From a virus (Duplodnaviria; Caudoviricetes): a DNA stretch of 37,375 bases. The notes under the pieces are model-generated. The model did no database searches. It was not told where the DNA came from and saw only the letters and a list, made by a program, of their open reading frames with translations. A program made the translations under genes and the position numbers. The stretch is taken from positions 1 to 37,375 of IMG/VR virus record IMGVR_UViG_3300012943_000687; one strand, 5' to 3'. Each line of letters begins with the position of its first letter. The first letter of the stretch is position 1. Shown here one piece after another: positions 339-25,509 of this stretch.

Positions 339-2009
339 CTAAAAATATTTAGCATTGAATTTATTTGCGTTGAATTTAATTGCTGAAATGAAATTACTTT
401 CAGTATTTTCCGGAATTGCAATAACGTTGATTGTTAAAATCTGCTCACTATAGTTTGCTTCATTCGTTGCCCTTACTGTCACAGAAAACGATTGACCAAT
501 AGTTGGTGGTGTAATCCAAGACAACGCTGCTGTAGATGTATTGATGTTGAATGCTGCAGCATCAGCTCCGGATTTTGAATAAACTGTTGTTCCTTCCGTT
601 GATGTCGCTGCAGAATTTAAAACTGCAGTAGTGCCTTCAAATCTCGTTAATGTTGCATCCGCAGGCATTACAGGCGGCTCAATCACATTTATTATATTCA
701 CAGTAATGTCCTGTGAATCGGTTCCAAATTCAGTTTCAACAGTTACTGTTATGTGCTTAACATTGCTTCCGGATTCGTAGTTAATCGGCGAAATTAAATC
801 TACAAGTGCGGTATCTTCATCAATCGAAAATAGTGCAGAATCAGGGCCGCCTAAAGTATAAAATTTTGTCCCGCCCCCTGATGAAGCTACAAAAGTTCCG
901 ACAGCAGTTGTATTTTCGTTTACGTTGACAACTGTATCGTCAGACATAACCGGTGGAGCAGTGCTTGCAACTCCAAAAATTACATAATAACTGCGCGCAA
1001 TTCCTGTTGATGACTGAAGATGCCAGCAAAGATACTCCCCTTCTTCACCGTCAATTCTGCCTTGTTCGTCATAAGTCATGCCGTCAGGAAAGGCTATCTG
1101 ATCGGTAACAACCGCAACTGGATCCATCTCAAAAAGTCCAGCCTCTTCTGAATAATCTAATGTTCCACTTAGCGTTACATAGTCATAACCGTCTGGAGGC
1201 AAGAAATTTGTGGTTGTTGTCGGTGCGCCTTCTGGCCCTGTAATAGTTACAGTTTTTGTCCCATATAATCCGTTAACAGTTTCGTCTACAAGCGGTGGAA
1301 TTGAATGTGTTCCGGTGCCATCAGTATCATCAATATCTATAGCAGCTAGACCACCAATGCTAACAGCAGTTACATCACTCAGGTCGGTTGCATAGCCTAT
1401 ACCGATTTCGCCGTTACGAACTGCACTGGGATAGGATTCAATAGTGCCTGCAATTTTTGTAAGTACTGCCCCATTCAAATACCCATAACTTGAGCCAGGT
1501 GCAGCCGTAAAAGAAAACGCGATAACACCACCGACGGGAGCAACAAGAAACTCCGCATAAGGAGCAACTGTGCCGGATGGCGGATTTGCCGCATCAACAT
1601 CTACTGACGCGCTACCGCTAACTGCCCCGGTAGTTACTACAAATCTAGTTACTCTTGAACCATCACCTCGCGCAACATCACGAGAAGCCGCTAAAATTAA
1701 CCGATAATTACCATCCGGGACGCTTGTAAAAGCGTAGGAACCAGTGTTACCGGAATCTAGATAAGTCGCGTCATAACAAATATTATTACTGACCCAAGGA
1801 GCAACACTCAAAGCATTGTTGCCATAGTGAGGGCCTGTTGTGCTGTCGGCTCCAGCGCTTGCATCGAAATCAATTACTGTAACTGTCGCGTCATCAATCG
1901 TTACTAGATTTGAAAAACTATCAGCAGCAGAACTTACGAGATATTCCCCGGAATTTACTGGTTTTGCAGCCTCGCCAAACGAAATTACTATTGGAAGTAT
2001 GTCGGTCAT
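339..2009 (-). CDS. cadherin-repeat / Ig-like putative virion adhesin or accessory protein
   Basis: Two C-terminal cadherin-like repeats (PPVM..VNVNENTTAV..YTLGGPDSALFSID..INYE..DITVNIINVIEPP; ..GADAAAFNINTSTAALSW..VTVRATN). Acidic and Thr/Ser-rich; no signal peptide. Confidence 0.65.
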   Translation of the reverse strand: MTDILPIVISFGEAAKPVNSGEYLVSSAADSFSNLVTIDDATVTVIDFDASAGADSTTGPHYGNNALSVAPWVSNNICYDATYLDSGNTGSYAFTSVPDGNYRLILAASRDVARGDGSRVTRFVVTTGAVSGSASVDVDAANPPSGTVAPYAEFLVAPVGGVIAFSFTAAPGSSYGYLNGAVLTKIAGTIESYPSAVRNGEIGIGYATDLSDVTAVSIGGLAAIDIDDTDGTGTHSIPPLVDETVNGLYGTKTVTITGPEGAPTTTTNFLPPDGYDYVTLSGTLDYSEEAGLFEMDPVAVVTDQIAFPDGMTYDEQGRIDGEEGEYLCWHLQSSTGIARSYYVIFGVASTAPPVMSDDTVVNVNENTTAVGTFVASSGGGTKFYTLGGPDSALFSIDEDTALVDLISPINYESGSNVKHITVTVETEFGTDSQDITVNIINVIEPPVMPADATLTRFEGTTAVLNSAATSTEGTTVYSKSGADAAAFNINTSTAALSWITPPTIGQSFSVTVRATNEANYSEQILTINVIAIPENTESNFISAIKFNANKFNAKYF

Positions 2010-2011
2010 CG

Positions 2012-3508
2012 CTAAACTCCCGCACTATAAGTTGGCAGCAGACCGAGCACTTCGGTGCTGAGTTGATACGCGCCTGCGTTTGTACCGTCAGGCATCAAAC
2101 CAATAGCGCCAGAACCTCCCGCATACGAATAATCATTCGCCGCGCGGTCAGTGAAAAGGGACGATGCCGACACAACAATAGAATGTGAATCCGGATTTGA
2201 TAAACCTAAATGCTGGGGAGTTCCTGCAGTTGCTGCCTGCCAGGTTGCTATATCGTTAAATGTCATTGAATTAGCGCCGTAGCGATTAGGAATGACCTGG
2301 AAGTTTGTATAAACGTTGTAATCCGATTCAGTAATTCGCGTGATTGCATTTTCATCATCATCGTATAGCGTTGTTAGTGCTAAAGAACCACCGCAAAGAA
2401 TATTCCCCCAACTTTCAATTTGCGCAAATGCTGATGCTGAAAAATGCGTAGTAGCACCAGTTGTTATGTCAATAATATTATGAGCAAGTCGCACTCTCGT
2501 AGACTGACCCTGTGCCCCACCCATCCGCGCCTGTACTGCTTCTTCCGTTGTTCCGTCAAAACCAAACATCACGTTATGATGAATATATTCAAAACCCGCT
2601 TCGCATGATCCGCTGCCGCGAATACCGATATTAATCGAGCTGCCCTTGCATTTTAGTTCACAATATCTAACTTCAACACCAGCGTACGGCGTTGTTGGCG
2701 AATCAGTTTCAACGAAGTGGTCTTTGAGAAAAATACCGAAGTCAACCGCATCAGTTTTAATGTGCTCGACAATCATATTTATGCAACCATAGGTTTGGAT
2801 TGCTGATGCAAGAGTAGATCCCTCTGCTGATATATTTTTGATAAATAAATTTCTAATTATCCAGTCTTTTGTCCCCCATGGGCCGATGCCCGAAATATTA
2901 TTACCTTCGGCTCCAGTCACACCATCAATCAAGCAGTTTTCTATACGCACACCAGTCGATAAATTTTCTAAATTAGGTATCCGATCCGGAACTTGCCCGT
3001 TGTTAATGATTCCAGCTTCACGACAATTTTCTATTCGTATGCCGTAAAAATTCCAATAGTCTTGGTCATTAATATGTAAACCTACTTGCGTTCCGCCGCC
3101 GTCTATAATGACTAAACCTTCATCGCCCGGAAACGCAATCATTGAGCATCGATTATCAATTTCACCACTTATTAACAATCCCAGAGCGCAAGGGTGACTA
3201 AACCAAGTCTGTGCGGAAACGAAAGCACTTAATGCAGTGCTTTCGTAATAAGTTCCTGCGCGAAGTATTATCGTGTCTCCCAACTCCATTACTGATAATG
3301 CTTTATTTATTTCCTTATATGGTGCGCCAAGTGATCCATCGCCGCTTTCATCGTCGCCATCTGTCGCCACATAAATTCCTACACCGTTTCCAAACTGTAT
3401 GTTGCCTACCGAGGGCGGACGATTGCCTAGCGCGTACAAAGTGGCAAACGTTGGCTGTGACGGATTCGCAATTAATACACCAGTTTTATCTTGATTAGTT
3501 TGCGTCAT
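2012..3508 (-). CDS. right-handed beta-helix (pectate-lyase-like) protein, putative tailspike/depolymerase
   Basis: IYVATDGDDESGDGSLGAPYKEINKAL..GDTIILRAGTY motif typical of parallel beta-helix proteins, plus repeated I-x-N-x-x-I rungs. Start reassigned to ATG 3508 (GAGG RBS). Confidence 0.75.
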   Translation of the reverse strand: MTQTNQDKTGVLIANPSQPTFATLYALGNRPPSVGNIQFGNGVGIYVATDGDDESGDGSLGAPYKEINKALSVMELGDTIILRAGTYYESTALSAFVSAQTWFSHPCALGLLISGEIDNRCSMIAFPGDEGLVIIDGGGTQVGLHINDQDYWNFYGIRIENCREAGIINNGQVPDRIPNLENLSTGVRIENCLIDGVTGAEGNNISGIGPWGTKDWIIRNLFIKNISAEGSTLASAIQTYGCINMIVEHIKTDAVDFGIFLKDHFVETDSPTTPYAGVEVRYCELKCKGSSINIGIRGSGSCEAGFEYIHHNVMFGFDGTTEEAVQARMGGAQGQSTRVRLAHNIIDITTGATTHFSASAFAQIESWGNILCGGSLALTTLYDDDENAITRITESDYNVYTNFQVIPNRYGANSMTFNDIATWQAATAGTPQHLGLSNPDSHSIVVSASSLFTDRAANDYSYAGGSGAIGLMPDGTNAGAYQLSTEVLGLLPTYSAGV

Positions 3509-3515
3509 TTTTTCC

Positions 3516-4595
3516 TCAACTTTCCGCGATCGGATCAAGGCGAGATTTAATAGCATCCGCGCTGCTTTTTTGTCCGGAAAAAGTCCCGGCTTGAATCGGT
3601 GGCTGTGTGGTTAACGGAACACCGTTATCGGTATATTGATGCGTATGAGTCGAAGCAGTGTTAGCAATATTTGACACCACTTGAATTAAATCACTGAGAA
3701 TGATTAAAACATTTTCACTCTCTGACCCAAGCCAAACTGTTCCGCCATCTTTGACTTTCAATAAATGTTTTATTTCTGCGATTGAAGAAATAATATTCCC
3801 AACAATTGTTGTTAAATCATTCTCAATATTTTGAGTTGAATCGTTGCCAATGTTTTGTAGGAAATCATTTGCAATATCTTGACTTGAATCATTGCCAATG
3901 CTTTGTTTTGCATTCCGCCCGATCTTATTATTTTGATCACTGGCAGTTGTAATATTTAAATTATCAACAGCGCCAATATTTAACGTTCCTGCACTCAATA
4001 ATTTTAATGCACCAAGCGCCTCAATTATTTTTACCCCGACAACTTGTTCTGTGCTGTTGTGTTTAACCAGGGAGTAGAAATCTTGGGCTGTAGTCGTTGA
4101 GCTGTAGCAGTGCAAAACATACTGCATACAGTCATCAAAAATATTTGCATCAGTTTCACGAATCCAGTTGCCGGCCGTGTCCGCGCGCTGGAAAACTCCG
4201 GGGGCGGCCTGAAGAACCATTTCGCCCACTTCAATTTTGGGCAAACTTAAACCTTCAGATAAAATAGTTCGCACAAAAGGTTTTGACGGCAAGCCCCAGG
4301 CAAACGCCAATTCAACCATTGTTCCAGGCTCGGGGAAGCCCATTGCGCCACGTTCCAGGCCAGCTGCAGCCAACGGCAAGGGAACGGACCTGAATACGGG
4401 TAAAAGTTCGTCAGGCTCGCCGGTTGTGCGCAATACTTGAAGATCCACAGCGTAACGAGGTCTAAATTTTTCGCTTAACGATTCAGTGTTTAATGGATCA
4501 CTGATGGCAACAACACGAGCAATAACTGGCAGATCCATTTTGCTGAATAATTGTTGATGATTCCGCTCGTTTATACGCTTGATCTGTTCGTCCAT
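3516..4595 (-). CDS. baseplate spike / puncturing protein (gpV/gp5-like)
   Basis: FRPRYAVDLQVL..G.FPEPGT.VELAF motif like the C-terminal half of the last HP1/K139 tail gene, gp5-like beta-repeats, and a C-terminal THTH metal-binding tip motif. Start reassigned to ATG 4595. Confidence 0.75.
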   Translation of the reverse strand: MDEQIKRINERNHQQLFSKMDLPVIARVVAISDPLNTESLSEKFRPRYAVDLQVLRTTGEPDELLPVFRSVPLPLAAAGLERGAMGFPEPGTMVELAFAWGLPSKPFVRTILSEGLSLPKIEVGEMVLQAAPGVFQRADTAGNWIRETDANIFDDCMQYVLHCYSSTTTAQDFYSLVKHNSTEQVVGVKIIEALGALKLLSAGTLNIGAVDNLNITTASDQNNKIGRNAKQSIGNDSSQDIANDFLQNIGNDSTQNIENDLTTIVGNIISSIAEIKHLLKVKDGGTVWLGSESENVLIILSDLIQVVSNIANTASTHTHQYTDNGVPLTTQPPIQAGTFSGQKSSADAIKSRLDPIAES

Positions 4596-5296
4596 CGAGT
4601 CCCCCAGGGATTCGCATCCCATGTAATATTTTGGTGCTGTCCATCCCACTGCAATTTTGTTATGTAATGCCCGGTGCTAAGTTGCACACCCGGACGCAAC
4701 TTTGGCAATGCAGGAATTTTTGCACTATTTGCCAGGCCGCTGTTGTCTTGCATATCAACTGGGATTTCGACTGGCTTACCTGCCCAATAGCTATCATCCC
4801 AACTACCGCAAAAAATCTTTCCGTCTCCCTGTTGCTGCCAAATAAATTTTGGTATTGAAAAAATCTGCGCAATTGAATCCATGCACATATATCCACTTCC
4901 AACCGAGAAAAATGCAGGCGCTTTTTTGTCTGCATAGGCAGCACCCGGAATAATAAATTCAAGCCCGGTCTCAGCACTAATAGCCGCCACAATTTCTTTG
5001 ATATTAATATTGCGTAAGCTCATCGGCACCAACCGAAATAAAACACTGGATAATTCCCTGCAAAAAATACGCTGTTGACGTTTATCAATTTGAAAACTGT
5101 TTTCAATCCAACCAAAAAACACTTGTTGCAATTGCTGAGGATCATAACCAGCAGTAAAAATAACTAATCCGGACAGTTTTTTATCCGCATCTACATCAAA
5201 AGAGGCGCGACCGGGATTAAATAAATCCAGCCTCACCTGATCAACATTTAATTGATATGCAACACCATCAACCGTGATTCGCTTTGTTAGTTTCAT
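4571..5296 (-). CDS. baseplate hub-like tail protein (gpD/gp27-like)
   Basis: WQQQGDGKIFCGSWDDS and LRPGV motifs resemble the N-terminal half of the last HP1/K139 tail gene; position in the operon. Confidence 0.7.
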   Translation of the reverse strand: MKLTKRITVDGVAYQLNVDQVRLDLFNPGRASFDVDADKKLSGLVIFTAGYDPQQLQQVFFGWIENSFQIDKRQQRIFCRELSSVLFRLVPMSLRNINIKEIVAAISAETGLEFIIPGAAYADKKAPAFFSVGSGYMCMDSIAQIFSIPKFIWQQQGDGKIFCGSWDDSYWAGKPVEIPVDMQDNSGLANSAKIPALPKLRPGVQLSTGHYITKLQWDGQHQNITWDANPWGTRWTNRSSV

Positions 5297-6733: not shown

Positions 6734-8794
6734 TTAAGAAAGATTAGTCAGCATCAGATGAGAACCTTCTAAAATTGAAGTATTGCTGCCATTTGAAACA
6801 GATTGCGACCAATCAACGCGAACGGTTGAAGCGCTTGTAACTTTCAAGATGCCACTAAACATTAGTACTTCGACTTGTGACGCTGCATTTGCAGCTTTTT
6901 CAAAGACTGCATCACTAAATCCTCCTGACTTAGCGATCGGCGTAGCAATCGTTCCAAATGTATTTGTTGGTGCTATAAATAAATTTCCTAAAACTTGCGC
7001 GCCTCCGGTTATTTGCAATAACACCTTAATACCTGCAGCGGCATTACCAGCTGACCATCTAATCATTCCCTCTACCTTATAAAGCCCGGTAGCTGGTGGT
7101 GTAATAGTTAGGTCAGGATCAGCGGCTACTGTTGTAGTACTATTTCTTGCTGTCGTTGATGTCTTGGCTACTTTTTGTGGCGCTGAAGTTAAGCTAGAAG
7201 CCAAATCATCAACTGCTGTTTTAACAAAAGCAGTAGTTGCAAGTCGCATATTATTTGTTCCAGCTGCTTGAGTTGGCGCAGTAGGATTACCGGTCAAGGC
7301 AGGTGATGCTAGCGGCGCTTTTAAACCCAAATCCGTAGCGATATCTGATGACAAATCATCAACTGCTGTTTTAACAAAAGCAGTAGTTGCAAGTCGCGTA
7401 TTATTTGTTCCAGATGTTTGAGTTGGCGCAGTAGGATTTCCTGTCAGTGCCGGTGATGCTAAAGGCGCTTTTAAACCCAATGCAGTAGCAATGGTTGCTG
7501 AAAAGTTTGGGTCATCACCTAGCGCCGCTGCAAGTTCATTAAGTGTATCTAACGTGGATGGCGAACTCGCAATCAGATTAGCAATTGCAGTTTTAACAAA
7601 AGCCGTGGTTGAAATTTTTGTACTATTGTCGGCTGCTGATTGTGTTGGCGCGGTAGGGTTTCCTGTCAGTGCCGGTGATGCTAAAGGCGCTTTTAAACCC
7701 AATGCAGTTGCTATGGTTGTCGCAAAATTTGGATCGTTGCCTAACGCTGCTGCCAGCTCGTTTAATGTATCCAATGCTGCAGGCGAACTCGCAATCAAAT
7801 TAGCAATTGCGGTTTTAACAAACGCAGTCGTTGAAATTTTTGTACTATTATCAGCGGCTGATTGCGTTGGCGCAGTAGGATTTCCTGTTAGTGCTGGTGA
7901 TGCTAACGGCGCTTTTAAATTCAACATATCCAACAGTGTTTGCATAATTGAATGCGTAACACCGGTAATATTTTTTCGTAAATCTGTTACAGCATATCCG
8001 GCTGTTACACTGGCAATTTTTACAAGGTAATGAACAACACCTGAAACAGTGTAATTCGATAAAGGAGCACCTGCTGTAGATGTTTTAAATTCATAAATTA
8101 CTGTAGAGCTGCTCGCATCTGCATCAAGCCATGCCTCTATGTAAATATCCTTTGGTAAAACCCCAGTGGTAATTAACTGGTCAGACGCTAAATTTATTCT
8201 CCAACCGCCAACATAACCAGCACCGGCTGTTGCGTAAACATCAGAACCACTCGCATAAATTAAAAAACCACTGCTAACAAAAAAACCTTCGCCAAAAATA
8301 TCCGCATAACCAAACCGAACGTCTTCATGAATATTTTCTAGCCTTCCCAAGAAATCGATTTGCCAGGCTTCAGCAGCAACATCAATTCCTGTTGTTGTTG
8401 TGGCGTTGTTGTACTGCATTAAAAAATTTCGAGTGAGCGAGTTTCCAACATCAAGCCCGACAGTTTGGTATTTATATTGAGGCGGAATATAACTCACCGC
8501 AATTAGTGTATCGTCCTCATCAACTAAGCCAACCCAGTTGAATGTAAAATTTCCAATGGCCGGGCCAAGAATGGTGCTGTAAACAACTTTGTCGTCTGCA
8601 ACATATCCCTGCGACAATACCGCTTCAGTGTGTACGATATCGCCAGGATCAGGCATAACCTCTGACAAACTGACAGGATCTTCAGGGTCTAATCCGTCGA
8701 TATATGCAAACACAAAATTTGTTACTAATAGAGGTTCACCTGCACCTTGTTTGATTGCAATTTTTGCGCGCCCGGAATCTACAATATTAGCCAT
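6734..8794 (-). CDS. tail fibre protein (tail-collar fibre N-terminal domain + fibre repeats)
   Basis: N-terminal VVYS..L...IGNFTFNWVGL..GNSLTRNFLM..AEAWQIDF domain, followed by KAPLASPALTGNPTAPT and LDTLNELAAALGNDPNF fibre repeats. Confidence 0.9.
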   Translation of the reverse strand: MANIVDSGRAKIAIKQGAGEPLLVTNFVFAYIDGLDPEDPVSLSEVMPDPGDIVHTEAVLSQGYVADDKVVYSTILGPAIGNFTFNWVGLVDEDDTLIAVSYIPPQYKYQTVGLDVGNSLTRNFLMQYNNATTTTGIDVAAEAWQIDFLGRLENIHEDVRFGYADIFGEGFFVSSGFLIYASGSDVYATAGAGYVGGWRINLASDQLITTGVLPKDIYIEAWLDADASSSTVIYEFKTSTAGAPLSNYTVSGVVHYLVKIASVTAGYAVTDLRKNITGVTHSIMQTLLDMLNLKAPLASPALTGNPTAPTQSAADNSTKISTTAFVKTAIANLIASSPAALDTLNELAAALGNDPNFATTIATALGLKAPLASPALTGNPTAPTQSAADNSTKISTTAFVKTAIANLIASSPSTLDTLNELAAALGDDPNFSATIATALGLKAPLASPALTGNPTAPTQTSGTNNTRLATTAFVKTAVDDLSSDIATDLGLKAPLASPALTGNPTAPTQAAGTNNMRLATTAFVKTAVDDLASSLTSAPQKVAKTSTTARNSTTTVAADPDLTITPPATGLYKVEGMIRWSAGNAAAGIKVLLQITGGAQVLGNLFIAPTNTFGTIATPIAKSGGFSDAVFEKAANAASQVEVLMFSGILKVTSASTVRVDWSQSVSNGSNTSILEGSHLMLTNLS
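7200..7920. repeat. tandem intragenic repeats in the tail fibre gene (222, 222, 150 bp periods)
   Basis: GGCGCTTTTAAA recurs at ~7314, 7464, 7686 and 7908; four KAPLASPALTGNPTAPTQ units. Confidence 0.9.
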
Positions 8795-24445: not shown

Positions 24446-24473
24446 TTGCGCTTGCGCTCAATGAGCGTACACT
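24446..24473 (+). promoter_or_regulatory. sigma70-like promoter with palindromic operator upstream of the Acr-like gene
   Basis: TTGCGC-N16-TACACT with CGCTCA-A-TGAGCG (24455-24467) in the spacer. Confidence 0.6.
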
Positions 24474-24541
24474 AACAACCATGCAAGCAAGATTGCTTAC
24501 ATCCGATCCGGCGGAACCGGAAATCGAAAAAGGTAAATATC

Positions 24542-24838
24542 ATGAAAAAAATCACTGCAATTCAATATTGGACATTCACCAATCAAGAAAACAATGAAAC
24601 AGAATATTGGGGCAATATTGCTATCGATGATAGCTTTATGTTGCAGTTTCACGGCAATAGCGAAGAATGCTCCTACTCAATTCCTCATTCTTCTGATGCA
24701 AGCTGGAACTCAGCAGAATCACAAGATGCCGCTTTTGAAAAATACAGCAAAAAAGAAGTAGTAGAATTTGTTGAAAGCCAAGGCTTCGAAAACAACTTGT
24801 TTTATGTGCAAGAAAATGGTGAATGCTACAACGCATAA
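24542..24838 (+). CDS. small acidic protein, candidate anti-CRISPR/anti-defence
   Basis: 98 aa with 17 D/E vs 5 K and no R. Own promoter, AAGGT RBS and terminator; adjacent to CRISPR-like repeats and an Aca-like HTH. Confidence 0.6.
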   Translation: MKKITAIQYWTFTNQENNETEYWGNIAIDDSFMLQFHGNSEECSYSIPHSSDASWNSAESQDAAFEKYSKKEVVEFVESQGFENNLFYVQENGECYNA

Positions 24839-24840
24839 AG

Positions 24841-24870
24841 AAAAGCCCCGGTTTTATCCGGGGCTTTTTT
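24841..24870. terminator. bidirectional intrinsic terminator
   Basis: AAAAGCCCCGG-TTTTAT-CCGGGGCTTTTTT, with T tracts on both strands. Confidence 0.9.
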
Positions 24871-24958
24871 TGCTGCCTGTGCGGCAGTGAACGGTTGCAT
24901 TAGCGGGTTATTTCTAACCTTTGCTTTTGCTTTCTAAGCTGCCTGCGCGGCAGTAGAA
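24865..24958 (-). CRISPR. type I-F CRISPR-like mini-array / crRNA-like RNA (two 28-nt repeats, one 38-nt spacer), no cas genes
   Basis: Plus strand TTTTTTTGCTGCCTGTGCGGCAGTGAAC (24865-24892) and TTTCTAAGCTGCCTGCGCGGCAGTAGAA (24931-24958), compared with the canonical I-F repeat TTTCTAAGCTGCCTGTGCGGCAGTGAAC. Both CTGCC-N5-GGCAG Cas6f hairpins are intact. Confidence 0.85.
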
Positions 24959-24963
24959 ATTTG

Positions 24964-24992
24964 ATTTAAGCAGAGTGATTACATCATGTCAA
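24964..24992 (-). promoter_or_regulatory. sigma70-like promoter for the crRNA-like RNA
   Basis: Minus strand TTGACA-N17-TTAAAT, preceded by TG (extended -10). Predicted start ~24957, at the first repeat. Confidence 0.55.
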
Positions 24993-25297
24993 CTGAAACG
25001 AGTGAACTACACATTACTGAGATCCCCCGCGAAGACAAATGCCGCTGGGCAGCCGCTGCATGTGCAAGCAATCAAAAACTGGCTGAGTGGGCAGTTAATG
25101 CACTCAACAATGCAGTGCCAGAAACCAATCCAGAATGGGCCTTTGGGCTTAGTGAGCGGGCGCGGCTGTGTTTGCTGTCAGCAGGTTTTGACAGTCGCGA
25201 AAGTGTTGCCAAGGCTGTTGCTGATGGCTTTGATATAGCCGCCATCAGCAACGCCGGAACAAAAATCAAAGATGAGGTGGAGTCATGGATAAAATAA
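24986..25297 (+). CDS. putative regulator: RHH-like N-terminus fused to an RNAP alpha-CTD-like (HhH) domain
   Basis: LHITEIPREDK.RW..AA....LAEW...ALN (RHH-like) plus LSERARLCL.SAG....V.......I.NAG.K...EV (alpha-CTD-like pattern). Confidence 0.5.
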   Translation: MSTETSELHITEIPREDKCRWAAAACASNQKLAEWAVNALNNAVPETNPEWAFGLSERARLCLLSAGFDSRESVAKAVADGFDIAAISNAGTKIKDEVESWIK

Positions 25298-25509
25298 CAC
25301 AACCCCCCCCTTGCCAAATCAAAGCCGCCAGGGAAGCGGCAGGCCTCACTCAAACTGCAGCGGCGGCATTAGTGCATGCAGGTTTAAAAACGTGGCAAAA
25401 CTGGGAGTCTGAAACCAGCGAAAATAGAAAAATTCCGCTGGCAGCATGGGAACTTTTTTTAATTAAAACTAAAAGTTTGGTCTCACGTAAAAAATTAAAG
25501 CCGCTCTAG
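25285..25509 (+). CDS. small XRE-type HTH protein, Aca-like
   Basis: IKAAREAAGLTQTAAAALVH..LKTWQNWE..RKIP.AAWELF; overlaps the upstream gene; GAGGTGGAG RBS. Confidence 0.75.
   Translation: MDKITQPPPCQIKAAREAAGLTQTAAAALVHAGLKTWQNWESETSENRKIPLAAWELFLIKTKSLVSRKKLKPL

Follow-up and report, generated by a model that had tools for sequence, protein, structure and literature searches.

A two-repeat I-F mini-array with a predicted hairpin spacer in an Aca10-type prophage operon, a candidate RNA decoy

The RNA anti-CRISPRs known for I-F systems are either solitary repeats, unable to recruit Cas5f/Cas8f, or short guides acting as promoter repressors. Solitary repeats are collected with SRUFinder, whose rules discard repeats having a partial copy within 100 bp. 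In I-F systems Cas6f cuts after G20 of the repeat and leaves an 8-nt handle, according to the Racr study (PMC10651486). Phage anti-CRISPR RNAs with two repeats are also on record, as CracrIF (bioRxiv 10.1101/2024.10.29.618823) and as viral mini-arrays (bioRxiv 10.1101/2023.03.03.530964), so that two repeats alone are not new. Multi-spacer Cracr arrays are common (10.1101/2024.10.29.618823), phage mini-arrays cluster with acr genes, and the spacers of host CreR/CreA are 23–27 nt long. Here we describe a two-repeat unit of a prophage whose spacer is longer than these and is predicted to fold on itself.

The mini-array and its operon

The window, by which we mean the whole stretch of 37,375 nucleotides analysed (IMG/VR record IMGVR_UViG_3300012943_000687), is a P2-like prophage with capsid, portal, terminase, Ogr and integrase genes, within a 239-kb contig. 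After ogr, the order is a promoter-like site, a 98-aa ORF, the antisense mini-array, a 103-aa ORF and a 74-aa HTH gene; the mini-array, of ~170 bp, is thus antisense to the operon and interrupts it. Elsewhere in the window, the left end (339–4649) has three large ORFs with weak cadherin, DUF1565 and gp5-trimer matches and a 24-nt repeat at 3790–3906, and the tail fibre gene contains 222-nt repeats (7202–8017).

The mini-array is formed by two minus-strand repeats standing 66 nt apart. The first, of 28 nt (24958–24931), has by sequence and RNA fold a degenerate 5′ end, an intact Cas6f stem-loop and an intact 8-nt handle, CTTAGAAA. The altered 5′ end (from 24959) is predicted to pair over 6 bp with the unit's own handle, which could hide the handle or slow cutting, or could be a mere quasi-palindrome correction. 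The second repeat (24865–24892, minus strand), scored by Rfam as CRISPR-DR4 (RF01317) with 40.2 bits, also has an intact Cas6f stem-loop, and its 3′ end turns into an A run followed by a GC-rich hairpin that has a U run on either strand (24837–24871, core 24845–24864), judged from its fold a likely bidirectional intrinsic terminator and absent from the terminator scan listing. Facing the first repeat are two sigma70-like sites on the minus strand (24964–25006), TTGACA-17-TTAAAT at 24992–24964 and TTCACT-17-TGTAAT at 25006–24978, both with a TG extension and scoring 10 and 9 of 12 in a motif scan; a stricter scan found none. As these predicted promoters are without an operator, expression of the mini-array may be independent of Aca10. 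A function of the repeats on the plus strand was rejected, the loops there being without G..A ends and Rfam scoring the minus strand; no plus-strand promoter of at least 8/12 was found in 24831–24990.

The operon itself begins with a promoter-like TTGCGC-16-TACACT (7/12 by motif comparison; 24446–24473, plus strand), holding an Aca10-type operator at 24453–24469. This site matches the published Aca10 operator at 15 of 16 paired positions, is the only one in the window within three mismatches, and overlaps the −10 box, as in the published Aca10 operon. The last gene (25285–25509, plus strand) encodes an Aca10-like HTH repressor of 74 aa (PDB 7xi5, E 1.5e-15), the structure being named once in the Aca10 paper (PMC9410881); it lies ~330 nt, and the operator ~400 nt, from the mini-array. 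In a phage locus, L289, this promoter and operator recur together with the 5′-UTR hairpin and a homologue of the 103-aa ORF (48% identical) that there too precedes the Aca10 homologue (79% identical), but the locus carries two other cargo genes and no repeat. With matching promoter, operator and last two genes flanking different cargo in L289, the mini-array occupies the part of an Aca10-type operon in which the cargo varies. The 5′-UTR hairpin, 13 nt long and GC-rich, is identical in both phages (~24508–24520 in the window, ~1547–1559 in L289) and is possibly an Aca RNA-binding site; Aca2 is an RNA binder.

The acidic 98-aa protein (pI 4.2; 24542–24838, plus strand) is by its position only a candidate Acr. 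It has 84 relatives at E 0.001 and no match in Pfam, NCBIfam, PDB or among known Acrs, and its model (pLDDT 96) matched nothing in Foldseek at E 0.001, reached at best a Z of 3.9 in VIA and had no usable hit in the Atlas. No relative appeared in the viral-contig and GTDB scans or in 251 genomes of the stand-in host family, and the metagenome scan for the family returned the window's own contig alone. Relatives of the gene with 93–98% identity in five sequencing runs (X3, X6, X18, X23 and X24) diverge at 24828 and run on into unrelated DNA; this tail holds a 13-mer resembling the 5′ arm of the spacer in the opposite orientation, probably by chance. The family of the 103-aa protein (24986–25297, plus strand) reaches only E 0.11 against AcrIF25, and PDB sequence searches of the two flanking ORFs gave no AcrIF24 match. 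The N-terminus of the 103-aa protein and the L289 cargo may resemble AcrIC6.

Fold and length of the spacer

An earlier note on this DNA had described a 38-nt minus-strand spacer folding into an 11-bp stem-loop with a GAAA cap and containing a TTAGAAA, and the sequence and the RNA fold bear out each of these points. The spacer has exactly that length between the two repeats (24930–24893), and all three helices named come back in the fold, at spacer positions 1–3/32–34, 6–8/27–29 and 12–16/21–25, as an interrupted hairpin closed by the GAAA tetraloop, with the TTAGAAA at positions 14–20 (24917–24911). The predicted hairpin of this pseudo-spacer has an MFE of −10.9 kcal/mol, represents 87% of the ensemble and has a z of −4.70, and none of 200 shuffles was equally stable. 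In the predicted 66-nt mature RNA it is retained in 75% of the ensemble, with guide positions 1–3 and 6–8 at least 96% paired. Translated as a peptide, the spacer had no convincing match within the fetched loci.

For comparison, we assembled 1804 unique I-F spacers from arrays of at least three repeats. A GNRA-capped hairpin of at least 5 bp is found in four of these and an internal TTAGAAA in three, while an energy per base as low is reached by 218 overall and by 10 of the 504 matched in GC. Since these measures are not independent (loop and part of the stem together make up the 7-mer) and were picked post hoc, the fold is best called unusual, in the top ~0.2–2%, and neither unique nor proof of selection. 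The combination of z ≤ −4 and MFE ≤ −10 was seen in 4/1339 array spacers of 31–34 nt and in 0/107 of 35–42 nt, the latter from loci chosen for long spacers; among the other two-repeat units of viral loci, none of 16 had z below −2. The array spacers of viral loci are almost uniform in length, with 32 nt in 286/308 and more than 33 nt in one.

The additional length has a simple source. A perfect 6-nt tandem duplication lies across the junction of handle and spacer (24922–24933, minus strand), overlooked in the earlier note, and it accounts for the 6 extra nt and supplies the outer helix. Tandem duplications are found in 8 of 25 ordinary spacers of 38–46 nt versus 48/1593 of those of 31–33 nt, and their removal reverts 5 of the 25 long spacers to 32 nt; a length of 38 nt is what slippage gives. 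In I-F1 Cascade, moreover, lengthened guides, among them those of +6 nt, show wild-type assembly and interference, with L = 6N−4 (PMC7296934), so that an aberrant complex does not follow from a length of 38 nt alone. With the duplication, the slippage in ordinary arrays and the functional +6 guides of that study, 38 = 32+6 does not count as a sign of design. The fold gives a different hint. Alone, the 3′ 32 nt of the spacer fold weakly (−5.7 kcal/mol, z −1.96), and when the same duplication was applied to 1363 ordinary spacers, at least 5.2 kcal/mol was gained in only three; nothing else hints as strongly at a duplication retained because of the fold.

Searches for targets, relatives and similar units

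A protospacer search, which the earlier note had proposed, gave no PAM-flanked target in phage, plasmid, IMG/VR, the prophage or 32 cas8f loci. In collections that are themselves incomplete, of 50,697 phage and 72,556 plasmid records, the best matches had E values of 2 and 0.4, none covering 80% of the spacer, and an exact 18-mer search of IMG/VR returned two related contigs whose matches extend to 19–20 nt only. Within the window there is no CC-flanked seed longer than 6 nt for the full spacer, and the best match within 3 kb is 18/30 (null mean 18.1). At the 32 cas8f loci, the longest seed reached 7 whether the spacer was read as 38 or as 32 nt, and 8 when only its last 18 nt were taken, with shuffled maxima of 6–10; the 31 cas8f genomes of the stand-in host family gave 13 and 20 seed hits, all of them away from cas8f. 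Applied as a positive control to those 32 loci, this method yielded CC-flanked seeds of 7–19 nt for seven plausible host crlRNAs with spacers of 19–32 nt; an eighth match, in L255, was dropped as a false unit. These seven are CreR-like units upstream of cas8f with the CC-flanked matches nearby (L240, L242, L256, L257, L262, L263 and L264), and six of their spacers have z above −1.

The host family had to be guessed. In the probable source run, a 56-nt contig matches 30 nt of the window exactly (24968–24997, plus strand) and continues into an I-F repeat identical in sequence to that of the L155 array (Marinagarivorans). From its sequence, the contig is probably a cellular I-F spacer against this prophage; its depth is 12.7 versus 21–24, and the bases upstream of a 32-nt reading at 24968–24997 are AT, not a CC PAM. 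The match overlaps the predicted promoter of the mini-array. The family of L155, which we take to be Cellvibrionaceae, served as the stand-in, with cas8f in 31/277 genomes. Full-length portals at 56–59% are found in 5/151 genomes of this family, while 78 of 80 viral loci have portals at 47–53%.

An independent freshwater run matches 24770–24920 with no differences, covering 28 of the 38 spacer bases, and 24969–25119 with six, each match resting on one 151-nt record of depth 3; the locus thus occurs a second time, which is no evidence of covariation. Among RNA contigs, none spans the spacer, although contigs are unable to prove absence. Diverged copies of the mini-array were not found across the viral, genomic and metagenomic searches. 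The strict two-repeat pattern search returned no viral locus, repeats were absent near related portals (0/80 loci), and a credible repeat was absent at Aca10-like loci, 18 of them viral and three genomic.

Other two-repeat units with long spacers do exist. Five stand alone on chromosomes, with spacers of 38–41 nt, in one family that includes a Methylococcaceae-titled genome. Three of them have a CC-PAM match to the terminal part of the gene next upstream, with 21–24 of 30 positions agreeing against null maxima of 19–21 and the match sitting 80–175 nt upstream: L165 (spacer 1521–1558, minus strand), L192/L311 (1514–1552, plus strand) and L310 (near 1500–1570, plus strand). Two of the three fold modestly (z about −1.8 to −1.9), and with a CC-PAM match in three of five such units, long and partly folded spacers can look like cis guides. 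The units of L165 and L192 lie at the same gene junction, presumably between an ilvC-like and a purC-like gene judging from the translations, yet differ in target strand and site; those of L165, L192 and L310 are possible Cascade-guided controls of housekeeping genes, or homing-type guides. The two-repeat unit of L187 (1521–1561, minus strand), between genes that we take to be rpoN-like and hpf-like, has a 41-nt spacer that folds strongly and for which 30 nt gave no match in cis.

The case for long-spacer two-repeat units as a structured class is weak, with z values of −3.4 in L187, −1.9 in L165, −1.8 in L192, −1.6 in L001, −0.5 in L217, −0.6 in L232 and +0.1 in L228, and the units on viral contigs range from −1.6 to +0.1. 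L213 was dropped from the group, since another repeat hairpin lies within its 44 nt; the number of hairpin cores in L232 is three. In the long spacers of L228, L230, L238 and L232, 32 nt are preceded or followed by TTAGAAA in one or two additional copies, a pattern of repeat-end slippage. In L001, a phage two-repeat unit (1201–1290, minus strand) with a 36-nt AT-rich spacer and a terminator directly follows an acidic 111-aa ORF. The prophage locus of L217 (1295–2932) and L218 has a three-unit repeat array, in which one spacer is short and the other AT-rich and 48 nt long, together with an 81-aa ORF, an HTH gene and a stand-alone Cas7f homologue (E 1e-30; TIGR02566 just under the cut-off), and is a candidate acr island using a viral Cas7f.

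Interpretation and comparison with known systems

The mini-array resembles a crRNA precursor with two repeats, its locus is of anti-CRISPR type, and the searches gave it neither a protospacer nor a target promoter. Its best single reading is therefore a non-targeting, Racr-like decoy crRNA, in competition with the guides of the host for the Csy proteins, and we give it about an even chance. In its favour are also the cargo position in the operon, the crlRNA-like architecture, the rarity of the fold and the probable cellular spacer against the prophage; against it speak the CC-PAM matches of long-spacer chromosomal units, the slippage that explains the length, the antisense placement within the operon, the lack of a known-Acr match for the 98-aa neighbour and the weak folds of other viral long-spacer units. 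Of the decoy that the earlier note had proposed, this part stands on the evidence just named; two repeats by themselves do not set it apart from known phage RNAs. Because a canonical non-targeting crRNA already lowers I-F interference (PMC10651486), a decoy role needs no special fold. That the hairpin has a role of its own, through a masked seed, a more stable RNA or a Cas7f backbone stalled with Cas6f and Cas5f/8f held, is doubtful.

As a decoy, the unit might work as follows. Minus-strand transcription from its own predicted promoter, outside the Aca10 operator, would probably be on in the lysogen. From I-F biology, host Cas6f would cut after G20 of each repeat and release a 66-nt RNA (24938–24873), staying on the 3′ stem-loop. 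If Cas7f melted the hairpin, a Cascade with seven Cas7f (L = 6N−4) would form without a target and act as a sink; if the hairpin held, or if the 6-bp pairing of the first repeat hid the handle, an incomplete complex could result, as with RacrIF1. More speculatively, and rather doubtfully, the hairpin, extended by the 6-nt duplication to the first guide base, may have been kept for seed masking and RNA stability.

A bolder form of this reading, which we place on the unlikely side, would be a third RNA anti-CRISPR design: a complete handle-bearing crRNA mimic, its guide locked from the first base in a tetraloop hairpin, capturing Cas5f/Cas8f by the handle and Cas6f by the 3′ end and incapable of DNA targeting. 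If true, it would capture in Cas5f/Cas8f and Cas6f the subunits that RacrIF1 leaves partly free, and it would be missed alike by searches for solitary repeats and by searches for promoter-matching spacers. A self-folded guide of this kind would also bear on whether Cas7f melts a stable guide hairpin during Cascade assembly, and should the fold prove irrelevant, there is still a new candidate decoy, with two new candidate Acr proteins flagged beside it.

The same unit could instead be a working guide in trans, in which host Csy takes up the RNA, Cas7f melts the hairpin, and the complex either represses a host cas or CreT promoter by partial pairing, in the manner of a Cracr, or excludes a superinfecting phage by attacking it; the fold would then reflect a palindromic target. 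Its architecture is that of CreR/Cracr units, handle and 3′ stem-loop are both intact, guides of +6 nt are functional, phage mini-arrays cluster with acr genes, three of the five long-spacer chromosomal units have CC-PAM cis matches, and the true host lies outside the genomes sampled. We nevertheless hold this to be unlikely: I-F Cracr spacers are mainly 17–21 nt and those of host CreR/CreA 23–27 nt; no target was found in phage, plasmid, IMG/VR, the window, the 32 cas8f loci or the 31 stand-in family genomes; and the seed is predicted to be paired, whereas six of seven host crlRNA spacers have z above −1.

Decay and erosion are the other readings to weigh. Both Cas6f stems, both G..A pentaloops, the handle, the terminator and the promoter-like site are intact, decay is limited to the dispensable repeat ends, a duplication gains as much stability in only 3/1363 spacers, and the independent run holds 24770–24920 with no differences, all of which argue against a relic, that is, an ordinary 32-nt spacer from hairpin-prone sequence that was picked up along with two repeats, then lengthened by 6 nt through slippage and left to drift, with an incidental fold and an RNA that does little. 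Such a history is rather improbable, even with the perfect tandem duplication and the five of 25 long spacers that revert to 32 nt likewise, the 10/504 GC-matched spacers that are equally stable per base, the post hoc choice of features, and the relatives of the 98-aa gene that run on into unrelated DNA in its favour. Very improbable is an eroded three-repeat Cracr array, in which the internal TTAGAAA, rare at 3/1804, would be the handle remnant of a middle repeat and the 18 nt between it and the second repeat a guide releasable by trimming, of a size within the 17–21-nt range of Cracrs, whose multi-spacer arrays are common; no Cas6f stem precedes the internal 7-mer, and the 18-mer is without a promoter target, its best seeds being 8 and 7 in the 32 loci with 0/20 hits near cas8f.

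In its presumed action the unit would resemble the solitary repeats. Like RacrIF1–3 (PMC10651486), the mini-array is a prophage-borne I-F repeat mimic near acr-type genes, with an intact Cas6f stem-loop, an own promoter (here predicted), no DNA target found, and a proposed competition for Cas6f and Cas7f. It is intergenic on a mobile element, and its nearness to acr/aca genes comes from the Aca10 homologue and operator, with no validated Acr found there. The difference from solitary-repeat Racrs that the earlier note had claimed is real: a Racr is a single repeat with no partial copy within 100 bp, and here a second repeat is present. The active product of RacrIF1 is without a 5′ handle, and this unit would yield a handle-bearing RNA of 66 nt. 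A structural paper of 2025 on the RacrIF1–3 complexes may discuss stem-loops in Racr bodies.

With CracrIF and viral mini-arrays the unit shares its place in an anti-CRISPR locus of a phage, the repeat-like elements on either side of a spacer-like stretch, and the proposed competition for Cas proteins. According to 10.1101/2024.10.29.618823, however, Cracr spacers match cas or creT promoters and often, though not obligatorily, lie beside acrIF24, and at 38 nt the present spacer falls outside the usual Cracr size; it is self-paired, lies beside an Aca10 homologue and had no target in the searches made. A target-less, self-folded two-repeat I-F decoy was not described in the literature searched, mostly non-subscription, and the published Cracr and mini-array spacer tables could list this unit or its target. 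Host CreR/CreA crlRNAs likewise have a degenerate first repeat, a 3′-degenerate second and a terminator, as in the seven plausible units upstream of cas8f in the 32 loci, but their spacers of 19–32 nt are mostly unfolded and have a CC-PAM match just upstream, with seeds of 7–19 nt. The acrIC7-acrIC6-aca10 operon (PMC9410881) has the homologous HTH repressor and a near-identical operator overlapping the −10 box; its cargo is type I-C Acrs, and here it is an acidic protein and an antisense mini-array, which would fall between the solitary repeats and the short promoter-repressing guides known for I-F.
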